NCBI GenBank assembly: GCA_021650915.1
Contig: CP091279.1
Location: forward strand, 3,000,001 to 3,032,000
Direction of reading: 5' to 3'
DNA: 32,000 nucleotides
Source of the DNA: Candidatus Brocadia sp.
GTDB lineage: Bacteria; Planctomycetota; Brocadiia; Brocadiales; Brocadiaceae
Shown here in pieces: positions 1,356 through 32,000 of this stretch. Both the position numbers and the translations under genes were made by a program. Within the stretch, counting starts at the first letter, position 1. Each line of letters begins with the position of its first letter. A model generated the notes under the pieces. The model did no database searches. It was not told the DNA's origin and saw only the letters and a list, made by a program, of their open reading frames with translations.

Positions 1356-2411
1356 ATGCACCCATTAGATTTTATATTAGGTTTCGTTTCCACAGACATG
1401 GGAATCGATCTTGGCACGGCAAACACCCTTGTTTGTATACCGGGACAAGGGATCGTGCTGTCGGAACCCTCGGTTGTTGCCGTGAAGCCAGGTACAAACA
1501 AAGTGCTTTTAAACGGGAATGCCGTGGGAAACGTTGCGAAGGCCATGCTGGAAAAGGCACCGAGCAGCATCTCCGTTATCCGCCCGCTCAAAAACGGCGT
1601 TATTGCGGACTTTGACATCACCGAGGCGATGCTCAAATATTTTATCACCCGGGTGCATAAACGGAAATGGGGTGTCCGACCCAGGGTACTGATTGCAATC
1701 CCGTCCGGTATTACCGCCGTGGAGAAACGGGCAGTCGTCAACTCCGCTGAGCGCGCCGGCGCAAGGGAGGTCTACCTGGTTTCCGAACCAAAGGCAGCGG
1801 CAATCGGCGTCGGCCTTCCGGTAGGTGAGCCAATAGCCAGTATGATTGTGGACATCGGGGGTGGAACCACCGAGGTGGCGGTTCTATCACTCGGTGATAT
1901 TTTTACTCATGAGAGTCTCAGGATTGCGGGAGATGAATTTGACGAATCGATCCTCCAATACATACGAAAAACCTACAACCTCGACATCGGGCACCGCACG
2001 TCGGAGCAAATAAAGATAGAAATCGGCTCTGCCTATCCTTTAGAAGAAGAACTCACGATGGAAATACGCGGGCGCGATGCCATCGCCGGTTTGCCCAGGG
2101 CGGCAACCATTACTTCTGAAGAGATCAGAGAGGCGTTAAAAGAGCCTATCGATAAGATTGTAGGCGCGGTAAAATCAGCCCTGGAAAGGACGGCGCCGGA
2201 ATTAGCTTCAGATTTAATAACCAATGGACTGGTCGTGGTAGGCGGGGGCGCATTGATCAGAGGCATGGACAAGCTGCTGATAGCAGAAACGGGTCTTCCG
2301 GTGCAAATAGGCAATGACCCTTTAACAGCCGTTGCAAGAGGAACGGGTTATCTCCTCGAAAACCTTGATCTATTTAAGTCTGTTCTGCAGGATGAGGACA
2401 TCCACCCCTAG
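1356..2411 (+). CDS. mreB: Rod shape-determining actin-like protein MreB
   Basis: 351-aa ORF. It has the N-terminal phosphate-1 motif GIDLGTANTLV, DIGGGTTEVAV, and C-terminal GGGALIRGMDKLL. It is followed by mreC and mreD. Confidence 0.95.
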   Translation: MHPLDFILGFVSTDMGIDLGTANTLVCIPGQGIVLSEPSVVAVKPGTNKVLLNGNAVGNVAKAMLEKAPSSISVIRPLKNGVIADFDITEAMLKYFITRVHKRKWGVRPRVLIAIPSGITAVEKRAVVNSAERAGAREVYLVSEPKAAAIGVGLPVGEPIASMIVDIGGGTTEVAVLSLGDIFTHESLRIAGDEFDESILQYIRKTYNLDIGHRTSEQIKIEIGSAYPLEEELTMEIRGRDAIAGLPRAATITSEEIREALKEPIDKIVGAVKSALERTAPELASDLITNGLVVVGGGALIRGMDKLLIAETGLPVQIGNDPLTAVARGTGYLLENLDLFKSVLQDEDIHP

Positions 2412-3228
2412 TTTCAGCAATCTCATTAAGCATCCCCTTGCAACAATAATTACCCTGTTCGTAATATCTCTGGCTCTGTTGTTTTTGCCACCAAACGTTT
2501 CATGCCGCATAAAGATGACCTGCGCTTCCCCGATGAGACCATTCCAGTGGGCAACGTGTTTTTGCAGCAACAAAGCCAGCGTCTTTCTTGATAAAGTGAT
2601 CTCCGCATTCCATGACGCGCACGGAAAAAAACACCTGGAAGAACAAGTCATGCGGTACAAAAATAAACTCGTTGAGCAACAGGACCTCCTTTTCAAATTG
2701 CAGAATAAATTGCATACCCTCTCAAAATTCCGCGCTGAAAATACCACGACGAAAAAAATGCCGGTACCTGCGGATATTATTGGATACGATGCATCAAACT
2801 TCAGGAAAAGTATAACGATCAACGTCGGCTCAAAACAAGGGGTAAAACCCAACGATATTGTCGTTGCGGATAATGCGCTTGTCGGGAAGATTACTGCCGT
2901 CAATGGAAGAAACAGCGTAGTTCAACTTATCACAGACCCCGCGATACGTATACCGGGGCGGGTTGTTCAAACGCGCGAGCAGGTAATTGTTGAGGGAAAT
3001 GCGACTGCCTTTTGCAGATTAAAATATGCACCGCGCTGGGCAAAGCTGAAAAAAGGAGACGTTATTGTCACCTCTGACATCGGGGGGCTGTATCCGCCTT
3101 CTTTACCGATTGCCACCGTCGTGGAACATGAGATGAAAAGCGGCGCACTCTTTCAATCGGTAAAGGCATTGCCCCGGGTAAATATCTCGAAAATTGAGAG
3201 TGTGCTTGTTCTTGTCAATGAGTCCTGA
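2392..3228 (+). CDS. mreC: Rod shape-determining protein MreC
   Basis: Position directly after mreB. It has an N-terminal TM helix (LATIITLFVISLALLFLPP), a coiled-coil segment, then beta-rich repeats (GVKPNDIVVADNALVGKITAV). I prefer the ATG at 2392 (MRTSTP) over the ORF-track start at 2332, which lies deep inside mreB. Confidence 0.8.
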   Translation: MRTSTPSFSNLIKHPLATIITLFVISLALLFLPPNVSCRIKMTCASPMRPFQWATCFCSNKASVFLDKVISAFHDAHGKKHLEEQVMRYKNKLVEQQDLLFKLQNKLHTLSKFRAENTTTKKMPVPADIIGYDASNFRKSITINVGSKQGVKPNDIVVADNALVGKITAVNGRNSVVQLITDPAIRIPGRVVQTREQVIVEGNATAFCRLKYAPRWAKLKKGDVIVTSDIGGLYPPSLPIATVVEHEMKSGALFQSVKALPRVNISKIESVLVLVNES

Positions 3229-3287
3229 GCGCCCTTACCAGGACGAGCCGGAAAAGACAAAGTCCGGAGCACGAAAATCGTGCATCA

Positions 3288-3372
3288 AACCCCGGCGGGG
3301 TTAATTTCAGTTTTTAAAAAAACTTCATTATGAATAATAGCGTAGGGGGGAGGTCTGAAACCCGCCCCTACG
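3288..3372. repeat. Two GC-rich hairpins of the intergenic repeat family, located in the mreC-mreD spacer
   Basis: AACCCCGGCGGGGTT (3288-3302) and CGTAGGGGGGAGGTCTGAAACCCGCCCCTACG (3341-3372). The same GTAGGGG...CCCCTAC and AACCCCnnnGGGGTT stems occur at 885-958, 11671-11700 and 27010-27067. Confidence 0.6.
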
Positions 3373-3389
3373 CAGTGAGGAATATCTGA

Positions 3390-3890
3390 ATGCGCTGGTT
3401 TACCTTTTTTTGTATGCTGTTCTGTATCTCCCTCTTTCAATCCACCCTGATGTCCTGGATTAATCTTGGGTCAGCGGCGCCCGACCTGTACTTTCCCTTC
3501 GTGGTGTTTTATGCATTTCTTACGGATGTGAAGCGAAATACCCTCGCAAATTGGTTGACGGGTATATCAAAAGACTTATTGTCGGAAGGAAGTTTTGGAA
3601 TCAATTCCGTTTTTTTTGTCGCAATAGGCTTTTTCCTTTGGTCATTTCGGGAAATACTCTTCAGAGGACATGTGGTCACCCAAATCCTTATTACCTTTAT
3701 CTTCTCGGTCATATACAACATCGTATACACCATCCACCTGGAAATCTCCTTTCATTCCCTCTGTCTGGCGCCAACACTCCGGATGATCCTTTGCTGTTCT
3801 TTCTACACGGCGATGGTGGTCCCGGCGCTGTTCTGGATATTCAACAAATTTCAGCCTACCCAGAAACTTTTTTTCATCAAGGGTAATTAG
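3390..3890 (+). CDS. mreD: Rod shape-determining protein MreD (polytopic membrane protein)
   Basis: A 166-aa, very hydrophobic ORF between mreC and PBP2. The assignment rests on synteny. Confidence 0.7.
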   Translation: MRWFTFFCMLFCISLFQSTLMSWINLGSAAPDLYFPFVVFYAFLTDVKRNTLANWLTGISKDLLSEGSFGINSVFFVAIGFFLWSFREILFRGHVVTQILITFIFSVIYNIVYTIHLEISFHSLCLAPTLRMILCCSFYTAMVVPALFWIFNKFQPTQKLFFIKGN

Positions 3891-3893
3891 CTT

Positions 3894-5822
3894 ATGTTTT
3901 CTTTCCGTTTCAAGACAATATTTATTCTTTTTATTTTGTTTTTTGTCTGCATCATTGTCCGGCTCTTTCAGCTCCAGATTGTCGAAAGCGACAAATACAA
4001 AGGCATCTCAAAAACCCGTCGCATCGCCACCCATCCCCTGGATTCAACACGGGGTTCGATTTTCGACAGAAACGGGAATATCCTGGCCATCGACCAGCAC
4101 ACCTTTGACATATCTGTGAATTACAAGAACCTGCTCTATTGCTCTATAACGCTCATGAAAAAAACCATTCCACGAATTACCGGACTGGAAGTGCACAAGC
4201 AGACAAAAAAATCGTGCCGTGATTGCCATGCAAATCAGGATATCTGGTTGAAAAAACTATCCCATCTGCTGAATATTCCGCAAGTGAAGTTATTAGAATG
4301 TACAGGCCAGGCAATCGAAAAAGTCGAGAAATTAAAGCAGAATATGGAACAAAAATACGGCAGGGCAATCCGCATAAAAGAAGAAACAGATTTTTATCCC
4401 ATTGTTTCAGAAGTTGACTGGGAAAAGATTATTCAAATAGAGACAAAGCAAGATGATTTTCCCGGCATACGTGTTACTCCCCGGCCGGAAAGAATTTATC
4501 CGGAGCAAACGCTCGCCTCACACATCTTAGGGTATATAGGAAAACTTACCGCGGACGAATGGCAGGCACAGAGCGATAAATGGAATAATTTCATCCTCGC
4601 TTCCAGCAGCGCCGGCCACGAAACCATGTCGCTGCTCTATGACGGCTATGCTGAAAATGACATGATCGGCAGAACGGGGGTCGAGGCATACTACGAAGAC
4701 GAATTGCATGGATTGCGAGGCAAGAGATTTGAAGAAATTACCTGCAAAAACACCCAGATTGAAAAAGTCGTGCTGGAAAGGCCTCCCGTTCCTGGAAACG
4801 ACCTTTATCTCACCATCGACAGCCAAATTCAGGCCCATGCAGAAAAATCACTTGGTACAAATTCAGGCGCTATTATCGTTATGAACCCCTGGACAGGCGA
4901 AATAGTCGCCATGGCCAGCAACCCACGCTTTAATCCCAATACGGTTGAAAAGGACTTTCGCAAACTGAACAAGCACCCCTCAAAGCCCTTTCTCAACCGT
5001 GCCATACAGGGGGCATTGCCGCCAGGATCCATTTTCAAAGTGATTACGACAACCGCAGCCCTGAGTTCAAATAGAATAACAACCCAAACGACCTTTGAGT
5101 GTCCGGGTTATATCAGATATAAGAATATCCTTTTTCGATGCTGGTCGGAGTATGGCCACGGATTGGTTACCGCCGAGGACGCTATTCCCTATTCCTGCAA
5201 CGTATTTTTCTTTGAGACGGCAAAGATGCTTCCCGGGGAGACGTTATACTCATGGGCAAAAAAGTTTGGTATTGGCGAGAAGACAGGCATTGACCTTCCC
5301 CATGAAAAGGCTGGCAATATACCAAAATTAGCCACCACTGCTTCGACCATGAACGTTGCCATCGGGCAGGGGGCGTTGCTTACCACGCCGCTTCAGCTGG
5401 CACGGGTGTATGCGGCCATAGCAAACGGCGGGACGTTAGTGCAGCCCCATATTCTCTTAAAAATTACCAATAGCCAGGGGGAAACCGTTCGGACCTTTCA
5501 ATCGAAAAATATCCAGAAACTCTCCGTGTCGCCTGATATTATCAACATGTTGCGCACCTCCTTGCAGGAGGTTGTCAGCCGCGGCACTGCTAAAGGCAAG
5601 GGACTGGATGTCTATAAGGTCGCCGGTAAAACAGGCACGGCCGAAACCGGACGTCATAAAGACAACCATGCCTGGTTTGTTGGTTACGCACCCTATGATA
5701 ACCCGGAATACTGTTTTGTCATCCTCGTGGAACACACACCGGGACATGGCGGAGACGTTGCGGGGCCTATTGCCAGAGAACTTATGACACTGTTGTTTCC
5801 GGAAATAGACGCGGCTTCATAG
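3894..5822 (+). CDS. mrdA: Penicillin-binding protein 2 (elongasome transpeptidase)
   Basis: 642 aa with an N-terminal TM anchor. It carries the transpeptidase motifs SxxK (GSIFK), SxN (YSCN) and KTG (KTGTA). It lies downstream of mreBCD. Confidence 0.9.
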   Translation: MFSFRFKTIFILFILFFVCIIVRLFQLQIVESDKYKGISKTRRIATHPLDSTRGSIFDRNGNILAIDQHTFDISVNYKNLLYCSITLMKKTIPRITGLEVHKQTKKSCRDCHANQDIWLKKLSHLLNIPQVKLLECTGQAIEKVEKLKQNMEQKYGRAIRIKEETDFYPIVSEVDWEKIIQIETKQDDFPGIRVTPRPERIYPEQTLASHILGYIGKLTADEWQAQSDKWNNFILASSSAGHETMSLLYDGYAENDMIGRTGVEAYYEDELHGLRGKRFEEITCKNTQIEKVVLERPPVPGNDLYLTIDSQIQAHAEKSLGTNSGAIIVMNPWTGEIVAMASNPRFNPNTVEKDFRKLNKHPSKPFLNRAIQGALPPGSIFKVITTTAALSSNRITTQTTFECPGYIRYKNILFRCWSEYGHGLVTAEDAIPYSCNVFFFETAKMLPGETLYSWAKKFGIGEKTGIDLPHEKAGNIPKLATTASTMNVAIGQGALLTTPLQLARVYAAIANGGTLVQPHILLKITNSQGETVRTFQSKNIQKLSVSPDIINMLRTSLQEVVSRGTAKGKGLDVYKVAGKTGTAETGRHKDNHAWFVGYAPYDNPEYCFVILVEHTPGHGGDVAGPIARELMTLLFPEIDAAS

Positions 5823-9361: not shown

Positions 9362-9720
9362 TTTCATTTCCTCCCAAATTTTACCCTCAAAATACGTTTC
9401 TTTTTTAAGTCCCACCATGTCTCAATTATCTGATAAAACCCGGTCATAATAAAGCAAAATTTCATGAAAAAGCAATGTATTTTTCTTGAATTTTTCCTGA
9501 AAAACACGTATCGTATTTTCAAAAATGGTTCGCAGTCCAACAAACAAACGAAGCAGAGACAAAACCTTTTTTAGAGATAATTCCACGCAGGAGGAAAGGA
9601 CCACTATGTTCAGTATAAATAAATTAATTATATATAGTAATTGTTCACTGCCTGTGATAAAATATTTTTCTTTTGGATAATGAATCTATCACCATTTTTA
9701 TGTATGAAAGGGGGAATAAT

Positions 9721-10620
9721 ATGTCTGATATGCAGAATAACGGCACAAATCAGGAGTATGCCTTGCCCGTCATTGAAATTGACGCCTACGCTCCGGCGAA
9801 GATGGCCGATCGGGTAGGGCATGTTGGTGTGGCAAAATCTCAGCTCAGCACGCTGACAACGCTGGCGTTGAGCATTCTTGCGGGCGTCTTTATTGCGTTG
9901 GGTATGCAGCTCTCCATGCTCGTTACTCATACCGCCACCAATAACTACGGCTTAAACCAGCTGGTCGGCGGCGTAGCGTTTACCTTAGCCTTGATTCTGA
10001 TCGTCATTGCCGGCGCCGAACTTTTTACCGGAAATTGCCTCATCGCCATGTCCTTTATGGCAAGGAAGATTACCGGCAGGGACCTTGCCAGAAATTTGAT
10101 CGTTGCCTTTGTTGGCAACTTTATCGGCGCGCTCACCCTCGTGCTATGGATTTACAACTCCAACCAGTGGACGATCAACAACTATCTTCTCGGCGCTAAA
10201 ATTGTTCTTGCAGCAAACGACAAAGTAAATATCCCCTTTGGCGCCGCTTTTTGCCGCGGGGTGCTCTGTAATGCATTAGTATGTCTGGGTATCTGGTTAT
10301 GCTACAGCGGAAGAAGCAATCTGGACAAGATACTGGCATTGCTGTGGCCTATCTCCTGTCTCATTGCCTGTGGATTTGAACATTGTGTCGTTAATATGTG
10401 GCTGATTCCCATGGCGCTTATCCTGAAAGGAAACAGCAGCGTCCTGGAGGCTATAGCAAGGATTCACGAAGGACCGGCAGACCTTTCCCATCTTACCTTT
10501 TTTCACGGTTTTTTAATAAACAATCTGGTTCCGGTCGTCCTGGGAAATCTGTTTGGCGGCGTCGTCCTCATTGCAGGCGCGTACTGGTTCGTCTATTTGC
10601 GTCCATCAAGAACGATCTAA
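9721..10620 (+). CDS. Formate/nitrite transporter family channel (FocA/NirC-like), paralog 1
   Basis: FNT signatures are AELFTGN and GFEHCVVNM (central His). The protein is polytopic. The start at 9721 follows AGGGGG; the ORF track extends to 9673. Confidence 0.9.
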   Translation: MSDMQNNGTNQEYALPVIEIDAYAPAKMADRVGHVGVAKSQLSTLTTLALSILAGVFIALGMQLSMLVTHTATNNYGLNQLVGGVAFTLALILIVIAGAELFTGNCLIAMSFMARKITGRDLARNLIVAFVGNFIGALTLVLWIYNSNQWTINNYLLGAKIVLAANDKVNIPFGAAFCRGVLCNALVCLGIWLCYSGRSNLDKILALLWPISCLIACGFEHCVVNMWLIPMALILKGNSSVLEAIARIHEGPADLSHLTFFHGFLINNLVPVVLGNLFGGVVLIAGAYWFVYLRPSRTI

Positions 10621-10635
10621 AAGGAGACCTCAAAT

Positions 10636-11556
10636 ATGGCCGATCAAAATACACCAAAAACGGTAAAAATTGTCGATATCGACGCCTATTCACCACCTCA
10701 GATTGCCGAAAGGATAGACACGATTGCAACGGTAAAGGCAAGTATCGATACCACAAAGACCTTTCTGCTGGGGATCCTTGCTGGCGCGTATATTGCCTTT
10801 GGAGCACAATTCGCCACGCTGGTAACCTGCGACTCTACCTTGCATTACGGTCTTACTGCACTTGTTGCAGGCATTGTCTTTTCCCTCGGTCTTATTCTTG
10901 TCGTGATCGCTAGCGCGGAGCTATTTACGGGGAATACCTTAATAATCATGGGATACGTAAGCAGAAGAATCAATACCCGCGACATGCTCAACAACTGGGT
11001 TATTTCGTATGCAGGGAATTTCGTTGGCAGCATCTCCATGGTATTCTGGATGTATCATAGCCATCAGTTTGAATTCTTTCATCACATGGTCGGGGCAAAG
11101 GCGCTTCTTATTGCAAACATGAAAGTCAATTATACCTTCAAAACGGCTTTAGCGCGGGGCGTGCTCTGCAATTCCATGGTGTGTCTCGCCGTCTGGCTAT
11201 GCTTTAGCGGCAGAAGCGTTGCCGACAAGGTCATCTCTATTATCTTTCCGATCGGAGGATTCGTTGCCAGCGGCTTTGAACACTCCATCGCCAATATGTA
11301 CTTTATCCCGATTGGTATTGTATTGAGAAAAAATCCTGATGTTGTTGCCGCCGCAGAAAAGATGACAGGGAAGGCGCTGGACCTCTCACAACTCACGTGG
11401 AAGGGCTTTGTCTTTAATAATCTTATTGCCGTTACGCTTGGCAACATTGTGGGTGGCGTTATCCTGGTTGGCATTATGTTCTGGTTCGTTTACCTGCGGC
11501 CAAATATCAGCTTGTCCTTCAGCGTAAAACAGGATTTCTTCCGTGAAAAAAAATAA
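10636..11556 (+). CDS. Formate/nitrite transporter family channel (FocA/NirC-like), paralog 2
   Basis: FNT signatures are AELFTGN and GFEHSIANM. An RBS (AAGGAG) lies upstream. The gene starts 15 nt after paralog 1. Confidence 0.9.
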   Translation: MADQNTPKTVKIVDIDAYSPPQIAERIDTIATVKASIDTTKTFLLGILAGAYIAFGAQFATLVTCDSTLHYGLTALVAGIVFSLGLILVVIASAELFTGNTLIIMGYVSRRINTRDMLNNWVISYAGNFVGSISMVFWMYHSHQFEFFHHMVGAKALLIANMKVNYTFKTALARGVLCNSMVCLAVWLCFSGRSVADKVISIIFPIGGFVASGFEHSIANMYFIPIGIVLRKNPDVVAAAEKMTGKALDLSQLTWKGFVFNNLIAVTLGNIVGGVILVGIMFWFVYLRPNISLSFSVKQDFFREKK

Positions 11557-13999: not shown

Positions 14000-15330
14000 T
14001 AAACGAGGGCGGATCAACCATTGCGTTGGACCTCTTTGGGTCAATGACACGTGGATCTCATCCCTCTCTCAAGAAAACAGGTGCGAACCAGCCTTTCATG
14101 CCCTCTTGCCCTGTTTTACTTGATTAGATTGCCAGTGATCAGTCTGTCATTATATTTCTCACTCTTCCTCCACACGCTTAAAGATATTGCCGCTATCTTA
14201 CGACATACTGCATTATAGGCATTGTCATGACCGATGCCTTTCAACCGCAAGGTATCGTAATAGTTCCTTAAACCGCTCTTACCCTTTAAAACCGAATGTC
14301 CTGCCATCTTGTATACGCATTTTAATATCCGATTTCCCCAAATCTTTTCACTCCCATATCCCCTCCCATCACTTATCCTCTTATGCCTCACCAACCCACA
14401 GTAGCTGTAATATTTGTACTTACTGCTAAACCTCTCCGGGTCTATTACCTGTGATACGATCTTCGCCGCCTGGATACTCCCAATGCCGGGAATGCTCTTG
14501 AGATATTTTATCTCTTTAAATCCCTTACTGCATCGAACGATCTCTTTTACATATTCCTGCCTGCCTTCTTCCATCTTCTCTAAAAGCTGATAGATCTGCG
14601 TGCCAATAAATTGAAAGTCTCTTCGCTCTAATCCTTCCAGGAAACTCTCGTCGTTATATAACGCTTCACCTTTGATTTTCTTCCCACTTTTCCGAAATAA
14701 GGATTTGTATCGGTTCTTTAGCCTCACACCCTCTTCAATGAAATCCTGATACCCGGACATTAAACTCCTTAACCTCTCCCTCTTTGAACCATCATGATAT
14801 ACCGGTACGAGAAAACCTCCTCGCAAAAGATTCGACAGCTTCCTGGCATCCATCTTGTCCGTCTTTTTCTTCTTGTAGTCTCCGTTTGCTACTGGATTGC
14901 ATACGATCAACTCATCTACTTCTGGTCTCAATATCTCATACAGCCAGTTGCTTAATTCACACTCTTCAAAGGTCAGTTTCTTAACACCCTCCACTCCCCT
15001 CAAGTACTTCACCAAAAGCCGACCATTGCTCTCAATCGTAGTGTTGTCTACTTCCCTCCCTCTTTCATCCGTCACATTGAATGTACATGTTGACGAATGT
15101 GCATCCAATCCTATATACTTTATCATACAGCCTCCTTTCCAAGGTTTAAAGACTTACCACCTTAATTGGTGGTCTAAAGCCTTTATGATATTTAATATCA
15201 CAAAAGGTTATCGCCTATTCAAGGCTTTTTAACCTCCTTGGAAGGACGCTGCTTTTTCATATTACCATTGCGAGTGAAGCGAAGCAATCTTTCACTCATA
15301 AAAAACGGTACCTCCTGAAAAGGGTTTGTG
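14000..15330 (-). mobile_element. IS110-family insertion sequence; boundaries are approximate and not determined
   Basis: A single transposase ORF with non-coding ends. IS110 elements lack clear terminal inverted repeats, and there is no second copy in the window, so the ends cannot be fixed from the sequence alone. Confidence 0.5.
14116..15126 (-). CDS. IS110-family (DEDD) transposase/recombinase
   Basis: 336 aa. It has the N-terminal IGLDAHS motif (DEDD RuvC-like) and the C-terminal Transposase_20-type motif IPGIGSIQAAKIVSQVIDPERFSS...YCGLVRHKRISDG. Confidence 0.9.
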   Translation of the reverse strand: MIKYIGLDAHSSTCTFNVTDERGREVDNTTIESNGRLLVKYLRGVEGVKKLTFEECELSNWLYEILRPEVDELIVCNPVANGDYKKKKTDKMDARKLSNLLRGGFLVPVYHDGSKRERLRSLMSGYQDFIEEGVRLKNRYKSLFRKSGKKIKGEALYNDESFLEGLERRDFQFIGTQIYQLLEKMEEGRQEYVKEIVRCSKGFKEIKYLKSIPGIGSIQAAKIVSQVIDPERFSSKYKYYSYCGLVRHKRISDGRGYGSEKIWGNRILKCVYKMAGHSVLKGKSGLRNYYDTLRLKGIGHDNAYNAVCRKIAAISLSVWRKSEKYNDRLITGNLIK

Positions 15331-21075: not shown

Positions 21076-23854
<2,779 letters not shown>

Positions 23855-23881
23855 GGCAACCGTTTCTCCACCACAAAAGCC

Positions 23882-24982
23882 TTACTTCGTTTCAATTGGC
23901 ATAATAACATCCAGCTGTTCGTAGCCCGTCCTGATCAAAGCTGCACTATCGCAATCGCTAAGTTCAATAACTACCGTATCATTATCCGAAACTTTCAATG
24001 CATCTATAACGTATTCCGGATCAAAACTAATTTCCAAATCCGGTCCATCATATCCAACGGCAATTTCCAACTCTGCCTCCCCCACGTCCGCGGTCCTGGA
24101 CGAAAGCAGCAACTTTCCCTGCCGGAAGATAAACTTTACTATACGATATTCCTCATTCGTCATAAACGAGGCCATCCGCACCCCTGATAACAATTGATTT
24201 CTGTCAACTTCTACTCTCTTGTCATTTCCCTTCGGTATAAGCTCCTCATATTTTGGATACTGACCCTCTATTAACTGTGAAATAATTTCACCCTTTTCAC
24301 CCGCAAAACACACCTGCTGTTCGCCCATCCCTAATGTTAAAATCCCTTTGCATTCCGACACAAACCGTTGCAGAAACGTTAAACACTTCACCGCCACTAT
24401 TCCATCAAACGATATCCCTTCAGGGTTGTTTACCTTACGTTTAACACTGGACATCCTGTTTCCGTCTGCGGCAACCATGATAATATAGTCATCCATAACC
24501 CTCACAAAGATACCGCACAACATACTTCGCACCTTAACCGTCGATACAGAATGAACAACCCTTCCCACCATATCAGCGATAATTCCTCCGTCTACTTCAA
24601 CAAGACCCTTGGTCTTTATCCTACCAATTTCCGGAAACTGCCTGAAATCTTCTCCCGCTATCTTGAAGTGCCCACCTCCCGATTTCAAGGTGCAATTTCC
24701 TTCTTCAATTGACACAGAAATTTCATCATTTCCAGCCCACTCTCTTAACACATTATTTACCCGAACCGCCGGCAGGACAATGCCACCTTCTCCTTCACAT
24801 TTTCCCGCCGGTAACACGTATTTAACCAAAACTTCCAAATCAGTAGCAACAAATTCTACCCGCTCATTTTTTACCTCAACCTTAACGCCTTTTAACACCC
24901 CTTTCAGTGCGGATGTTGGAACAATACCAGCTACCAAGTTAAAACCACCGAACAAGTCTTTTCCTGAGAAATGTAATTTCAT
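23882..24982 (-). CDS. dnaN: DNA polymerase III beta sliding clamp
   Basis: 366 aa. The N-terminus ...VEFVATDLEVLVKY is typical of DnaN. Position is directly downstream of dnaA. Confidence 0.9.
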   Translation of the reverse strand: MKLHFSGKDLFGGFNLVAGIVPTSALKGVLKGVKVEVKNERVEFVATDLEVLVKYVLPAGKCEGEGGIVLPAVRVNNVLREWAGNDEISVSIEEGNCTLKSGGGHFKIAGEDFRQFPEIGRIKTKGLVEVDGGIIADMVGRVVHSVSTVKVRSMLCGIFVRVMDDYIIMVAADGNRMSSVKRKVNNPEGISFDGIVAVKCLTFLQRFVSECKGILTLGMGEQQVCFAGEKGEIISQLIEGQYPKYEELIPKGNDKRVEVDRNQLLSGVRMASFMTNEEYRIVKFIFRQGKLLLSSRTADVGEAELEIAVGYDGPDLEISFDPEYVIDALKVSDNDTVVIELSDCDSAALIRTGYEQLDVIMPIETK

Positions 24983-25223
24983 GTAATCTTCCTAACGTTT
25001 TATTATATTTTAAAAGATATATAAACCGTAACCTTACTATATGATGATCATACTTCTGCTATATGAATATAACTGTTAAGAACATAAGCCTCTACGTCAA
25101 TTTGCCGCATGTAGAGAACCTGTAGAAAGTTTGGATGGTAAAGCATCCTCTGCAAGGGCAGAGAAATAAAAAGCCTCTTATTCCGGATTAATTTATACAA
25201 GTATTTTACATATTATGAACATA
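24983..25223. other. Candidate oriC segment (the dnaA-dnaN spacer): an AT-rich stretch plus degenerate DnaA-box-like 9-mers
   Basis: The AT-rich run is TTTTATTATATTTTAAAAGATATATAAA (about 25002-25028). Three clustered 9-mers resemble TGTGGATAA: TGTAGAGAA (25110-25118, 7/9), TGTAGAAAG (25121-25129, 6/9) and TTTGGATGG (25130-25138, 6/9). There is no perfect box. Confidence 0.35.
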
Positions 25224-26588
25224 CTACTTCTGTAATTCACTTTCCAGCTTTTGAAGTATAATACTAAGGTTTTTGTCTTTTTTTAACATCTTGGTTATTT
25301 TTTCGTCTGCATGAATTACCGTTGAATGATCTCTTCCTCCTAAATATCCGCCAATTTCCATAAGCGACATCTTCGTTAATTTCCTTGACAGGTGCATGGC
25401 TATTTGTCTGGGAAGCGCAAGACTTCTTGTTCTGCACCGTGACTGAAGCTGGGAGACGCGTATGTTGAACCTCTCAGAGACGGCCTTAATGACCGTTTCT
25501 ATACTAATGTACCTTTTGTTGCCTGAAAGCTCCCAGACAATTTTTCTCATACGGTCGAGGGTAATACTATTTTTCGTTATCTTTTCCTCCCGGCTCAGAC
25601 GCGCAATAGCTCCTTCGAGCTCACGAATGCTTCCGGTTACGTTCTCTGCAAGATATGATGCGGCTTCATGCGATAGATTAATACCCCATAATGACGCTTT
25701 TTTCTCCGCTATTGCGATGCGCGTTTCCCGAGTCGTATTATCAATACTGCAGAGAAGCCCCCATTTAAAACGGGAAATAAGCCTGTCTTCAAGAGTGGCA
25801 ATTAATTCAGGCGGACAATCACTCGTGATAACAATTTGTTTTTTGGCGTTATAAAGGGTATTAAAGGTATGAAAAAATTCCTCTCTGCTTTCCTGAGAAT
25901 TTTCAAATGCCTGTATATCATCTATAAGAAGTGCATCGATGTTTCTGTAGAAAGCTCTGAAAGAGTCCCAGCTATTTGTTCGTATTGTTGAAATGTAGTG
26001 ATTTACAAAACGTTCGCAGGGCACATAAAGGGTCTTCATCTTGTGTTTGGATGACAATACGTTATTTATAGCATGCAGAAGATGGGTCTTTCCGAGACCG
26101 GAAGCTCCATGAATAAACAGAGGATTATACGCAAGGCCTGGCGTTTCTGAAACGGCAAAGGCTGCTGCGTGCGCTAATCTGTTGCAGGGACCTACAACAA
26201 AATTTTCAAAGCTATAATATTTGTTTAAAGGCACATGATAATTTTCCTCAGGAGGTTTCTTTCCTGCAAAGAACTCCTCCGGTGGAAAAGACGTAGCTGA
26301 TAATTTATCAAAGACCTCTTCCTCAGTGGAAAAGTGAACTTCTCTTGACGAGTTTAATACTTTATATACTGCGCTCGAAAAAAGGTCGTGGTAATGGCTT
26401 TTAAGCCACTCTCGGATAAAAGAATTCGGCGTAACAAAGGTAATTCTATTGCTGGTAACGGATGATACCCTAAGACACGAAAACCATATTTCAAACTGTT
26501 GAGCGGTAACAACCTCTTTTATTATGGATAATATGCCTTTAAGGATAAAATCCCTCTCGTTATTGGAAACTACAGGTGTTTCTAGCAT
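25224..26588 (-). CDS. dnaA: Chromosomal replication initiator protein DnaA
   Basis: 454 aa. It has Walker A GASGLGKTHLL, an AAA+ domain III, and the domain IV signature GGRDHSTVIHA. Confidence 0.97.
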   Translation of the reverse strand: MLETPVVSNNERDFILKGILSIIKEVVTAQQFEIWFSCLRVSSVTSNRITFVTPNSFIREWLKSHYHDLFSSAVYKVLNSSREVHFSTEEEVFDKLSATSFPPEEFFAGKKPPEENYHVPLNKYYSFENFVVGPCNRLAHAAAFAVSETPGLAYNPLFIHGASGLGKTHLLHAINNVLSSKHKMKTLYVPCERFVNHYISTIRTNSWDSFRAFYRNIDALLIDDIQAFENSQESREEFFHTFNTLYNAKKQIVITSDCPPELIATLEDRLISRFKWGLLCSIDNTTRETRIAIAEKKASLWGINLSHEAASYLAENVTGSIRELEGAIARLSREEKITKNSITLDRMRKIVWELSGNKRYISIETVIKAVSERFNIRVSQLQSRCRTRSLALPRQIAMHLSRKLTKMSLMEIGGYLGGRDHSTVIHADEKITKMLKKDKNLSIILQKLESELQK

Positions 26589-26840
26589 TGCAGAGTGCGG
26601 TTCATTTTTCTCAATAGGTTGATAAGCGTTTGAAGTGCAAACTTGTAATTACACGAAGGAACCAGACTATAGAAAAGAACGCTGGAAAGAAAATATCTCT
26701 TGTGGAAATTCCAACGCACGCTAAGGAAAAAATCGGGTAGAATGATACCAAGAAAAGAATGGCAAGTCAAACGATAATACTTCATAATCTTCTTATCAAG
26801 GTTATTAACAGGCACTTAAAGAGATCGATTTGCTCAAGCG

Positions 26841-26952
26841 TTTGAAAAATTACCATAATAACGATGTTACCGCACGGTGTAGGGGCGAAGCATTTGCCAT
26901 AAATTGACATAAATGTATTCACACCCCAAGCTGGCAAATGCTTCGCCCCTAC
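26841..26952. repeat. Second copy of the 112-nt hairpin repeat core, in reverse orientation relative to 885-996
   Basis: The reverse complement of 885-996 aligns to 26841-26952 with 2 mismatches by my manual alignment. It includes the stem GTAGGGGCGAAGCATTTGCC / GGCAAATGCTTCGCCCCTAC. Confidence 0.85.
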
Positions 26953-26961
26953 CTTTTGAAA

Positions 26962-27117
26962 AATCCCGAAGGGATGACATGATTATAGAAAAAACGCGCC
27001 ACCCTATTCAACCCCGTAGGGGTGGAATATCGGGAAAATAGCGATACTATGCCACCCCTGCGGGGTTAGCCATAATTGCATAACCATATGCTATAATCAT
27101 GACATCCCTTCGGGATT
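26962..27117. repeat. 156-nt nested long hairpin
   Basis: The 27-nt arms are AATCCCGAAGGGATGACATGATTATAG (26962-26988) and CTATAATCATGACATCCCTTCGGGATT (27091-27117), matching at 26/27. An inner inverted pair is AACCCCGTAGGGGTGG (27010-27025) / CCACCCCTGCGGGGTT (27052-27067). Confidence 0.8.
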
Positions 27118-27135
27118 ACTGAATGGATACGAGAA

Positions 27136-27160
27136 TTTTTCAAAAAGCTAAATTGTTACA
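27136..27160 (+). repeat. Recurrent 25-nt module TTTTTCAAAAARCTAAAKTGTTRC
   Basis: TTTTTCAAAAAGCTAAATTGTTACA occurs here. Related copies are at 988-1012 and 11725-11750 (plus orientation) and, inverted, at 854-884. Confidence 0.5.
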
Positions 27161-27213
27161 AAAAATTTTGTTTTTTTGGGAGGATGCCTTCAGAAACTAC
27201 CAGTATTATTTTG

Positions 27214-27242
27214 TTGACATCCTATCATGTCGCAGGTATCTT
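27214..27242 (+). promoter_or_regulatory. Sigma70-type promoter candidate for the riboswitch leader
   Basis: TTGACA (27214-27219), a 17-nt spacer, then TATCTT (27237-27242). Confidence 0.45.
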
Positions 27243-27282
27243 AATGGTGTTAGAAACGATTAATGACCAAACAAATAAACAA

Positions 27283-27376
27283 ACACGACAAGGGCAAACC
27301 CTGAGTGATCGGGGGACGCAAAGTAAAGGGTCTTTCAACTAATAAGGATGTAGTTAAAGACGTACCTTATCCTTTA
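27283..27376 (+). promoter_or_regulatory. Candidate c-di-GMP-I (GEMM-I) riboswitch aptamer
   Basis: ACACGACAAGGGCAAACC-CUGA-GUGA-UCGG-GGGACGCAAAG matches the conserved AGGGCAAACC ... GNRA ... GGGACGCAAAG core of GEMM-I. The comparison is to the Vc2 aptamer, from memory. A second helix spans 27324-27376 (UAAAGG/CCUUUA, GUCUUU/AAAGAC, AACUA/UAGUU). Confidence 0.6.
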
Positions 27377-27387
27377 GCAAAAAAGAT

Positions 27388-27443
27388 AGCCTTACTGCCG
27401 AAGATGTTTCACAACAATCTTTGCAGTAAGGCTTTTTTATTTT
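27388..27443 (+). terminator. Rho-independent terminator (putative riboswitch expression platform)
   Basis: The stem is AGCCTTACTGC (27388-27398) / GCAGTAAGGCT (27423-27433), with an inner AAGAT/ATCTT pairing. It is followed by TTTTTATTTT. Confidence 0.75.
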
Positions 27444-27487: not shown

Positions 27488-28324
27488 ATGCCAAAAGGAA
27501 TTGCACTAACAACGGGACTGAATGCCGTCAGTCCGGCGCACTATGGTGGCTGGTCAGGAGAACTCAACGCATGCGAAGCGGATGCAAAAGATATGGCGGA
27601 GATTGCCCGGTCAAAAGATTACGAGGTAAAGACCTTGCTCACCAAAGAAGCCACGCGGAAGAATGTTATCGATGGGATCATAAAGGCTGCCGGCACACTG
27701 ACGTCCGGTGATATCTTTATGCTAAGTTATTCCGGCCACGGCGGACAGCTTCCCGACATGAACAGCGATGAGGATGATGCACAGGATGAAACGTGGTGCT
27801 TATATGATGGAGAAATGGTTGATGATGAGCTCTATACATTGCTTGGAAAATTTGCGAAGGGTGTTCGTGTCCTGGTCTTTTCTGATAGTTGTCACAGCGG
27901 TACCGTGACGAAGCAGGCATACTACCAATCTGCCATGAGGGCTGTGGGTGCAAAAGGGATTGCTCCGGAAGTCCGGTATCGTTTTATGCCAATGGAGGTC
28001 GCCGTTCGCACCTATCGCGATAATAAAAAATTTTATGACCCCATCTTAAAGGACGCTAAATTGAAGGAATCGCGCGATGCCGTAAACGCCTCGGTGATCC
28101 TCATCTCTGGCTGCCAGGATAATCAGCTTTCTGCCGATGGCGCCTTTAATGGCTTGTTCACTGCTAATTTGCTGCAGGTGTGGAATGAGGGAAAATTCAG
28201 AAAAGGATATCGGGCTTTTCGTCGTGCTATTGTCAATCGCATGCCCCCAGACCAGACGCCGAATTATTTCCGTGTGGGCGAGACTAGCCGTGCTTTTGAA
28301 AGACAAAGACCATTTACAATTTAA
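27488..28324 (+). CDS. Caspase-like cysteine peptidase (peptidase C14, orthocaspase-type), single domain
   Basis: 278 aa. The catalytic His is in LSYSGHGG and the catalytic Cys in VFSDSCHSG. An RBS (GGGAGGAG) lies upstream. There is no signal peptide and no accessory domain. Confidence 0.85.
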   Translation: MPKGIALTTGLNAVSPAHYGGWSGELNACEADAKDMAEIARSKDYEVKTLLTKEATRKNVIDGIIKAAGTLTSGDIFMLSYSGHGGQLPDMNSDEDDAQDETWCLYDGEMVDDELYTLLGKFAKGVRVLVFSDSCHSGTVTKQAYYQSAMRAVGAKGIAPEVRYRFMPMEVAVRTYRDNKKFYDPILKDAKLKESRDAVNASVILISGCQDNQLSADGAFNGLFTANLLQVWNEGKFRKGYRAFRRAIVNRMPPDQTPNYFRVGETSRAFERQRPFTI

Positions 28325-31172: not shown

Positions 31173-31292
31173 AAAACTTGCAAAAGAAGACGCTTTTGCA
31201 GGTTCCTGCGAAAAACCAGAATCTTATAGTGAAAACGGGGGAAGACAGGTTTCCCTCACCTTTTACCTTACGCCATCATAAGGAGGTGCAAT

Positions 31293-32000
31293 ATGGACGG
31301 AAAGACTTTTGCTCGTATACGTGATTGGGTGGAACCGGCGCATCCGGCGGTCGTAAAATTGTATGATGATCTGATCGATATCTATACCCGGATTCGTGAG
31401 AGATATCAGAAGGAAATAGATAATGCATTTGACAGGATATCACGGCAGATTGGGTTTGTGGTAACTACCACGGTGCCGGTCGTGTTCGAAATAGGAGACA
31501 AGGGTGAATTTAAGCGTATGGGCATGGGGGCGGAGCATCTCAAAGATACGCTTTTTGATAAGGAGCTATCTAAAGTATTTGGACCACATCCAGACCCGTG
31601 GAAGGTCGCAGCGGGGAAATACAATCTGTACTTAGTCTGGTTCGATGCACTCCATTTGAAGCTACGGACGGACTGGATGGAGCCTGCGCATTTTTTCAGG
31701 GAAAGGTTTGCGGCGGACATTGCATCAGGACCCATGGCCGGGATCAGCAGTAGGGCATTAAAACAGGGGTGGGAATGGCAGGAACCAGCGCACTGGTTTG
31801 ACCCGGGAATAGCCATTGCGGTAGAAGAGTTGGTGCTGATCGAGGCGATCGACCGGGTATATCCCGAGCTGCGTCTTGTGGATCGGGTGGCCTTTGTCCG
31901 GGATGCCCTCCGGAAGCGAGTAAGGCCTGAAGTGATGGAACCGGCGCATTTCCACCGAGTTGAGAAAGGGATATGTCCGGAAGGTACTGAGGGGAACCGC
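31293..32000 (+). CDS. Protein of unknown function with four [DE][WV]xEPAH[FWP] motifs; 3' end lies outside the window
   Basis: This ORF is not in the ORF track because it runs off the window. AGGAGG (31281-31286) lies 6 nt before the ATG at 31293. There are 236 open codons to the window edge. EPAH occurs at residues 14, 130, 164 and 216, using different synonymous codons, so the conservation is at protein level. Confidence 0.6.
   Translation, partial: MDGKTFARIRDWVEPAHPAVVKLYDDLIDIYTRIRERYQKEIDNAFDRISRQIGFVVTTTVPVVFEIGDKGEFKRMGMGAEHLKDTLFDKELSKVFGPHPDPWKVAAGKYNLYLVWFDALHLKLRTDWMEPAHFFRERFAADIASGPMAGISSRALKQGWEWQEPAHWFDPGIAIAVEELVLIEAIDRVYPELRLVDRVAFVRDALRKRVRPEVMEPAHFHRVEKGICPEGTEGNR

Follow-up and report, generated by a model that had tools for sequence, protein, structure and literature searches.

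This study examined a 32,000-nucleotide (nt) stretch of the genome of a Candidatus Brocadia species (contig CP091279.1, positions 3,000,001 to 3,032,000 of the forward strand; hereafter, the window), at the end of which lie two adjoining genes, one for a class B, that is, B12-binding, radical S-adenosylmethionine (SAM) enzyme and the other for a protein carrying the tetrapeptide E-P-A-H four times (the EPAH protein). An initial annotation, made from the letters alone, had pointed out the four motif copies and the adjoining B12-radical SAM gene, and both observations held: the decapeptides that it quoted are exact, its residue numbers marking the acidic residue at position -3 to EPAH. It had also taken the open reading frame (ORF) of the EPAH protein for a partial one, which is incorrect, because the stop codon TAA directly follows the last codon of the window (...AAC CGC) in four public assemblies that are 99.9% identical to the window over its last 4.9-6 kb. 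The product is a complete protein of 236 amino acids (aa), and exactly this product is annotated as a called protein on 98 contigs. The coordinates of all features are collected in Table 1.

Table 1. Features of the window, in window positions, with the remarks that identify each of them.
Feature	Position	Strand	Remarks
EPAH-motif protein gene	31293..32000	+	Complete coding sequence of 236 codons, stop codon just outside the window; basis, translation
Shine-Dalgarno-like AAGGAGG	31280..31286	+	6 nt ahead of the ATG at 31293; read from the sequence
EPAH site 1	31332..31343	+	Residues 14-17, context RDWVEPAHP, immediately ahead of helix 1; codons GAACCGGCGCAT
EPAH site 2	31680..31691	+	Residues 130-133, context RTDWMEPAHF, exit of the folded N-terminal core; codons GAGCCTGCGCAT
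EPAH site 3	31782..31793	+	Residues 164-167, context WEWQEPAHWFDPG, end of the disordered loop; codons GAACCAGCGCAC
EPAH site 4	31938..31949	+	Residues 216-219, context VRPEVMEPAHF, C-terminal tail; codons GAACCGGCGCAT
Example synthetic peptide for the EPAH motif			VRPEVMEPAHFHR
Class B (B12-binding) radical SAM enzyme, 592 aa	29394..31172	+	PF02310 and PF04055 matches
Spacer hairpin	31179..31200		8-bp stem (TGCAAAAG...CTTTTGCA) between the radical SAM and EPAH genes; no plus-strand T tract
Peptidase C14 (caspase-like) gene	27488..28324	+	Pfam match; lineage-specific context, outside the conserved module
c-di-GMP-I-GGC riboswitch aptamer	27284..27403	+	Rfam RF03167, 66.1 bits against a gathering score of 59
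gyrB, dciA, dnaN, dnaA, then a non-coding stretch of about 700 nt (26589..27283)	21076..27283	-	Non-coding stretch probably the chromosomal replication origin
Formate/nitrite transporter (FNT)/IS110 region	9673..11556	+
Formate/nitrite transporter (FNT)/IS110 region	14116..15126	-
mreB-mreC-PBP2	1356..5822

The EPAH protein and its radical SAM neighbour

The repetition exists in the peptide and not in the DNA, as had been claimed, because a direct-repeat search found the likeness among the four copies confined to a 12-14-nt motif core and weak 31-nt flanks of 61-74% identity. From the composition of the protein, 0.0035 EPAH copies would be expected versus the four present, and 20,000 shuffled versions of the protein never contained any tetrapeptide four times. 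A six-frame translation of the whole window gave neither EPAH nor EPVH anywhere else. Inspection of the protein sequence found no signal peptide and no DNA-binding features.

No match to the EPAH protein was obtained in Pfam, NCBIfam or PADLOC, and a profile search of the PDB returned noise only (E > 0.3). The literature yielded no paper joining EPAH with radical SAM enzymes and no relevant use of EPAHF or EPAHW. Nevertheless, 655 homologs (E <= 1e-3), mostly 208-300 aa long, were found in a collection of 5.8 billion clusters, and a profile search of 1.84 billion representatives gave 181 clusters, all of them members of the EPAH family or fragments thereof, with no remote relatives detectable. 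The family comprises at least 655 EPAH-protein clusters at 90% identity, and the partner enzyme at least 877 clusters. A 525-aa 'fusion' architecture (P0318) was rejected, as it appears to be a chimeric gene call.

The AlphaFold model of the EPAH protein has a mean predicted local distance difference test (pLDDT) score of 74.6, with 103 residues at 90 or above. A confident alpha/beta core is formed by a long helix (residues 18-53), three strands (60-67, 73-78 and 108-115) and three further helices (117-125, 177-189 and 195-209). Site 1 abuts helix 1, and sites 2, 3 and 4 lie in flexible loops or the tail, in segments with mean pLDDT of about 44-52; the score is below 50 at residues 131-133 (site 2) and 144-165 (the loop of site 3) and averages 52 over residues 211-220 (site 4). 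A Foldseek search with the model gave no match below E = 0.1, only a faint resemblance to the TonB/TolA C-terminal domain. A ferritin-like or di-iron ExxH protein was considered and rejected, since the motifs stand in loops and tails of an alpha/beta core and no ferritin-like match was found in Pfam, the PDB or Foldseek.

The partner enzyme has an N-terminal Rossmann-type B12-binding domain (PF02310, E = 2.8e-18, residues 12-119) and a radical SAM core (PF04055, E = 1.4e-17), in which the cluster motif CxxxCxxC is present as CWRNCAFC (C183/C187/C190) and is invariant in 48 orthologs at a mean column identity of 73%. The enzyme falls below the cut-off of every NCBIfam family: the best match, HpnR, reached 97.9 bits against 650, the RiPP (ribosomally synthesised and post-translationally modified peptide) C-methyltransferase family TIGR03975 reached 74.6 bits against 281.85, and TIGR04014 (MgmA type) reached 56 bits against 360. 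Its AlphaFold2 model (pLDDT 82.5), in which residues 418-515 form a C-terminal helical bundle, was matched by Foldseek to OxsB (3e-22), MgmA (2e-18), TsrM (3e-18), CysS (4e-16) and TokK (3e-15), with AprD4 also among the structural matches; sequence matches in the PDB were OxsB and MgmA only. The partner enzyme is a genuine member of the class B radical SAM enzymes, in an unnamed subfamily, and cobalamin chemistry is predicted for it.

Conservation of the motif and of the gene pair

In an alignment of 61 EPAH homologs reaching down to about 49% identity, the four EPAH sites and about 15 core residues were invariant, and the loops around the sites differed in length. The invariant residues are E14, P15, A16, H17 and P18 at site 1, P131 and H133 at site 2 (where E130 and A132 are kept in at least 90% of the sequences only), E164, H167, W168 and F169 at site 3, and E216, P217 and H219 at site 4. 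Among 52 species-level loci, site 1 reads EP[AV]H in 46, and the canonical sites individually do so in 45-47, with scattered losses that are mostly changes of H to Q. The family consensus over 289 motif copies is [LV]-R-P-[DEG]-[WVI]-x-E-P-[AV]-H-[FWPLY], in which E, P and H hardly ever vary and A is replaced by V only. The earlier statement that an acidic residue always stands at -3 is true of the four copies here but not of the family, where this position is D or E in 177 and G in 63 of the 289 copies.

Homologs carry between 3 and 12 EPAH copies. The additional ones come as tandem units, 8-30 residues long, that always retain E-P-[AV]-H and either sit in the loop joining sites 2 and 3 or follow site 4; the site-4 unit is the one tandemly multiplied in many homologs, and at locus L052 the extra units are visible as 30-nt tandem repeats in the DNA. 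An archaeal member with 12 copies (L061) has lost the canonical sites 2 and 3. Because canonical sites are occasionally lost, as in this case, while the copy number varies, the EPAH sites behave as redundant and individually recognised units. With regard to the C-terminus, most family members have a conserved amphipathic helix (...LSELAxVLRRYGY; e.g., P0008, P0022, P0029, L052 and L061), which in archaeal members is repeated along with every extra EPAH unit; the protein of the window does not have this helix and ends in ...EKGICPEGTEGNR.

A scan of GTDB with one genome per species gave 56 loci. The bacterial loci belong to Acidobacteriota, Geobacterales, other Desulfobacterota, Brocadia, Nitrospinae, Anaerolinea, Chlorobium and Phycisphaerales, and the archaeal loci to Bathyarchaeota, Methanoperedens/ANME-2 and Methanosarcinales; one of the 56 comes from a cultured strain, Geobacter hydrogenophilus DSM 13691. 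Viral contigs and plasmids were both searched, and the module was found on neither.

The initial annotation had proposed checking whether homologs always neighbour a B12-radical SAM gene. This was largely borne out: of the 56 loci, 52 gave a tblastn match to an ortholog of the enzyme (57-92% identity). Of the 52 full-length pairs that entered the analysis, 51 have the enzyme gene as the direct upstream neighbour in the same orientation, usually 4-125 nt away; the gap is 4 nt in Bathyarchaeota, the two genes overlap at some loci, and the gene order of the pair is reversed at L011. A reciprocal test, with four members of the radical SAM family picked solely for their long contigs, found an EPAH-family gene with 4-8 motifs 22-67 nt downstream in all four. 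The 'always' does not hold for the four loci without a radical SAM match. Two of these (L047 and L064) begin within about 270 nt of a contig end, one (L060) has an N-terminally truncated partner gene, and at the last (L037) the partner gene is directly preceded by a group II intron, which occupies exactly the place of the absent radical SAM gene and so points to a mobile element having disrupted the module. Close to the module, D1-D4 elements of group II introns were seen at L037 (1624-1798, minus strand) and at L010 (2820-3047, plus strand). Pairwise identities of the one protein correlate with those of the other (Mantel r = 0.83, a value reached in 0 of 2000 permutations), and this sequence comparison indicates that the EPAH protein and the radical SAM enzyme co-evolve.

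Neighbouring genes and other features of the window

All-against-all clustering of the ORFs of 58 non-duplicate loci gave no third conserved gene family, returning only the pair, shadow ORFs and generic two-component regulators, and no conserved protease or exporter was found near the pair in the same set. Most neighbourhoods outside Brocadia consist of ordinary metabolic or housekeeping genes and are mutually unrelated. In the window, the genes upstream run in the order C14 peptidase, lipoprotein-like ORF of 223 aa and radical SAM gene, and the surroundings of the pair in the Brocadia genome include, besides the caspase-like gene, a DpdE/ZorD-like SNF2 helicase, BglII and an MT-A70 methylase. 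A homolog of the caspase-like gene is missing from 53 of the 56 GTDB loci; outside the species of the window, it was found only at L042 (Geobacter, 65% identity) and as a fragment at L009 (Brocadia carolinensis). The initial annotation had speculated that the acidic residue of the motif might serve in recognition by the caspase-like enzyme as a protease. This idea is not supported, given the rarity of the gene and the lack of conservation of the residue at -3. Moreover, characterised bacterial C14 peptidases cut after Arg or Lys, not after Asp.

Just outside the window, a Cys-rich protein of 789 aa, with no match in Pfam or PADLOC, follows the EPAH gene in the same species (L001 8756-11125). 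Homologs with 40-44% identity lie just downstream of the pair at Geobacter-type loci (L042 10635-12986, L048 8958-11285 and L051 8934-10799), directly adjacent to it at L048 and L051 and with the 65% identical caspase-like gene intervening at L042. The caspase-like gene and the 789-aa gene may form a lineage-specific accessory set.

The c-di-GMP-I-GGC aptamer lies 84 nt upstream of the caspase-like gene and is kept in Brocadia carolinensis (L009 1384-1503). With no plus-strand terminator predicted in the intergenic gap ahead of either the radical SAM or the EPAH gene, all four genes could in principle be under the control of the aptamer. As a general mode of regulation for the module, a riboswitch was rejected, as this aptamer was not found beside the pair in 19 other loci. 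The hairpin in the spacer between the two genes was scored terminator-like for the minus strand only and could be an mRNA processing or stability element. The window also holds two tandem FNT paralogs, in keeping with its 99.9% identity to Brocadia-type assemblies, organisms with a nitrite-dependent (anammox) lifestyle, and an IS110-family transposase.

A candidate enzyme-substrate pair and its alternatives

We see about an even chance that the two genes form a module, the partner protein being the dedicated substrate that the class B enzyme modifies at every EPAH site. A multi-site substrate of the neighbouring enzyme had already been suggested in the initial annotation, and it is the best-supported reading on comparative grounds, namely the pairing and co-evolution of the genes, the invariance and multiplication of the sites, and their flexible placement, whereas the modification itself, together with the substrate status, the target residue and the chemistry, is what we infer from the sequences. 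In such a mechanism, the folded core of the 236-aa protein would dock on the enzyme in a leader-like manner or keep the protein soluble, and the flexible segments would present the consensus [LV]-R-P-[DEG]-[WVI]-x-E-P-[AV]-H-[aromatic]. The EPAH segments would enter the active site singly, each E-P-A/V-H site being recognised independently, and one invariant residue (Glu, Pro or His) would be modified at each site. By analogy, C-methylation of a residue of the site is probable, because it is what the majority of the characterised class B enzymes catalyse; the alternative chemistry would be a different radical reaction, for example a Glu-His cross-link. The full-length modified protein is more likely to be the functional product than an excised and secreted peptide, because no protease or exporter travels with the pair.

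Several known systems resemble this candidate pair in part. As regards a repeated tetrapeptide of which every copy is modified, the closest in function is TvgA/TvgB, in which TvgB acts on all copies of the repeated TVGG tetrapeptide of TvgA (PMC9062424); both systems combine an adjacent radical SAM enzyme with a protein or peptide bearing a conserved, repeated four-residue motif of varying copy number. However, TvgB is a SPASM-type radical SAM enzyme (IPR023867) and not B12-binding, TvgA is a short peptide of contiguous repeats whereas the EPAH candidate is a folded protein with dispersed sites, and the tvg cluster also encodes an oxidase and a peptidase/transporter (PMC9062424), whereas the EPAH module consists of two genes only. 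For a repeat-bearing protein matured by neighbouring radical SAM enzymes, the closest parallel is HxsA, which is matured by HxsB/HxsC and, once modified, is itself the effector (PMC13128918). The HXS system differs in having two non-B12, SPASM-type radical SAM enzymes (HxsB/C) plus HxsD instead of a single B12-radical SAM enzyme, and in that HxsA is a secreted, peptidoglycan-binding protein with an HxS motif (PMC13128918), unlike the EPAH protein with its own motif and no signal peptide. No Hxs family of NCBIfam matched at the EPAH pair, and membership in the HXS system was rejected, as the motif, secretion, enzyme number, Hxs families and PADLOC all fail to fit.

The closest case of a B12-radical SAM enzyme methylating a protein is MgmA/QCMT (PDB 9ccb), which C-methylates a glutamine of McrA, a part of methyl-coenzyme M reductase (PMC11796369). 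It is of the same enzyme class as the partner enzyme, is among its best sequence and structure matches, and C-methylates an unactivated carbon within a protein. The identity of the two in the structural alignment is only 16%, though, MgmA acts on a single McrA site without a repeat motif, and the partner enzyme is also found in non-methanogenic bacteria. The EPAH system belongs to none of these three systems.

Proteusins (with an NHLP leader, PoyB/PoyC and TIGR03975-type enzymes) are likewise acted on by B12-radical SAM C-methyltransferases at many sites and have an unusually large, folded, leader-like region. In both cases, B12-radical SAM enzymes act, or would act, on a multi-site ribosomal product, but the EPAH protein has no NHLP/Nif11 match, and no epimerase, protease or other proteusin genes lie near the pair. 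In terms of RiPP precursors in general, the EPAH protein shares the encoding beside a modifying enzyme, the co-inheritance with it and the conserved motif repeated in 3-12 copies. It does not have the short leader-core layout, its sites standing before, between and after structured elements, nor a cluster-encoded RRE (RiPP recognition element)/PqqD, protease or exporter.

A number of points weigh against a dedicated substrate. The EPAH protein is far larger and better folded than a typical RiPP precursor, its core is conserved as strongly as the motifs, which would also fit an accessory subunit, and neither a protease nor an exporter is linked to the pair. No RRE/PqqD-like recognition domain was found in the Pfam and NCBIfam scans, and none is apparent in the enzyme model. 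Glu and His are classic metal ligands, so that a binding role remains conceivable, and class B enzymes are not all methylases, OxsB being the top structural match. In addition, at one locus (L056 8001-8900, Terriglobia metagenome-assembled genome contig DATFYM010000094), all four EPAH sites are lost while the core of the partner protein is kept: three sites read ELVQ, ESAH and EPAQ, and the fourth is replaced by three tandem copies of RPEPGWHHAEMAPYPLSF.... The radical SAM enzyme of this locus is intact (595 aa, 85% identity to the nearest relative), and the loss could reflect decay, a changed target motif or an EPAH-independent function of the core.

This last locus bears most directly on a rather unlikely rival, in which the EPAH protein is an accessory subunit (a scaffold, chaperone or delivery factor) and not a substrate, its EPAH segments being multivalent tethers for an enzyme that in reality acts on something else, such as a lipid or small metabolite. 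A core retained beside an intact enzyme without any EPAH site is what such a subunit would show, and the strong conservation of the folded core, with many invariant residues outside the motifs, fits as well, as does the close succession of the two genes, with the 4-nt gap in Bathyarchaeota and the overlaps elsewhere. The weak similarities of the enzyme include HpnR, HpnJ, BchE and ladderane families, which act in lipid or tetrapyrrole pathways, all of them far below cut-off. On the other hand, a subunit of this kind has no obvious need for 3-12 invariant tetrapeptides in flexible segments that expand in tandem, and biosynthetic genes for a small-molecule substrate do not co-occur with the pair, whose genomic contexts are mutually unrelated. 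Metal or cofactor binding, which the initial annotation had offered as a second option for the repeat, is less favoured, and we regard it as improbable that EPAH is an ExxH-type ligand pair and the protein a metal or corrinoid chaperone or store for the enzyme, or a metalloprotein. In the 61-sequence alignment, Glu and His are the sole invariant potential ligands and no Cys is conserved; the partner enzyme requires cobalamin and Fe-S clusters, and metallochaperones typically bear a varying number of ligand motifs in disordered tails. Nonetheless, Pro and Ala/Val are as invariant as Glu and His, and the hydrophobic residues flanking them are conserved, a pattern that looks like recognition of a peptide by an enzyme. 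In the AlphaFold model the motifs stand apart in low-confidence loops, unlike ligands borne on paired helices in a four-helix bundle, individual sites drop out with nothing restoring the geometry, and no ferritin-like or metalloprotein match appeared in Pfam, NCBIfam, the PDB sequence search or Foldseek.

A variant of the substrate model, which we consider doubtful to a similar degree, would make the EPAH protein a multi-core, RiPP-like precursor from which the EPAH units are excised, by the C14 peptidase in Brocadia and some Geobacter, to give copies of a small peptide- or amino acid-derived molecule. The conserved flanks of the repeat (R-P-E-V ... F-R) could be processing sites, although an Arg at -5 followed by Pro is a poor cleavage context. 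The sites are interspersed with a folded core instead of being laid out as a leader plus cores. The recurrence of the 65% identical caspase-like gene and of the 789-aa homolog beside the pair in the Geobacter loci L042, L048 and L051 would agree with such processing, and TvgA is a precedent (PMC9062424), yet the absence of the caspase homolog from 53 of the 56 loci, with no other protease or exporter conserved, argues against it. A far more remote explanation, which we deem very improbable, is an anti-phage defence module in which the radical SAM enzyme matures a repeat-bearing effector, as in the HXS system (PMC13128918). The patchy spread over bacteria and archaea, with 57-70% enzyme identity across phyla, suggests horizontal transfer, and the Brocadia neighbourhood, with its caspase-like gene, SNF2 helicase, BglII and MT-A70, resembles a defence island. 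Elsewhere, however, the neighbourhoods are mostly metabolic or housekeeping, the module is not carried by viral contigs or plasmids, PADLOC matched the enzyme only weakly and generically and the EPAH protein not at all, and the EPAH protein has neither a signal peptide nor DNA-binding features.

Returning to the enzyme-substrate model, we hold it as a tentative possibility, on balance an unlikely one, that the pair installs a new modification at the EPAH sites (C-methylated His, Pro or Glu, or a Glu-His cross-link), giving a modified protein or a peptide-derived molecule. The outcome might then be, with the same reserve, a protein with a new role in anaerobes of both domains or, after proteolysis, cofactor-like small-molecule copies in the style of pyrroloquinoline quinone (PQQ) and mycofactocin.

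Class B radical SAM enzymes catalyse alkylations that are hard to achieve chemically, and, of the thousands in databases, most lack a known substrate; the EPAH pairing provides an enzyme-substrate hypothesis for an entire orphan family of them. Both the motif and the pairing of the genes are kept in two domains of life, in a family common to Acidobacteriota, Geobacterales, anammox Planctomycetes, Bathyarchaeota and methane-oxidising archaea. As the predicted target is sharply defined (E-P-A-H, several per molecule), a modification should be easy to find by mass spectrometry, and genetic work has a cultured host in Geobacter hydrogenophilus DSM 13691. If the hypothesis is true, it would add to the radical SAM repertoire both a new protein modification and a new architecture, namely a folded protein with dispersed, expandable modification sites that works without a leader, a recognition element or a protease.

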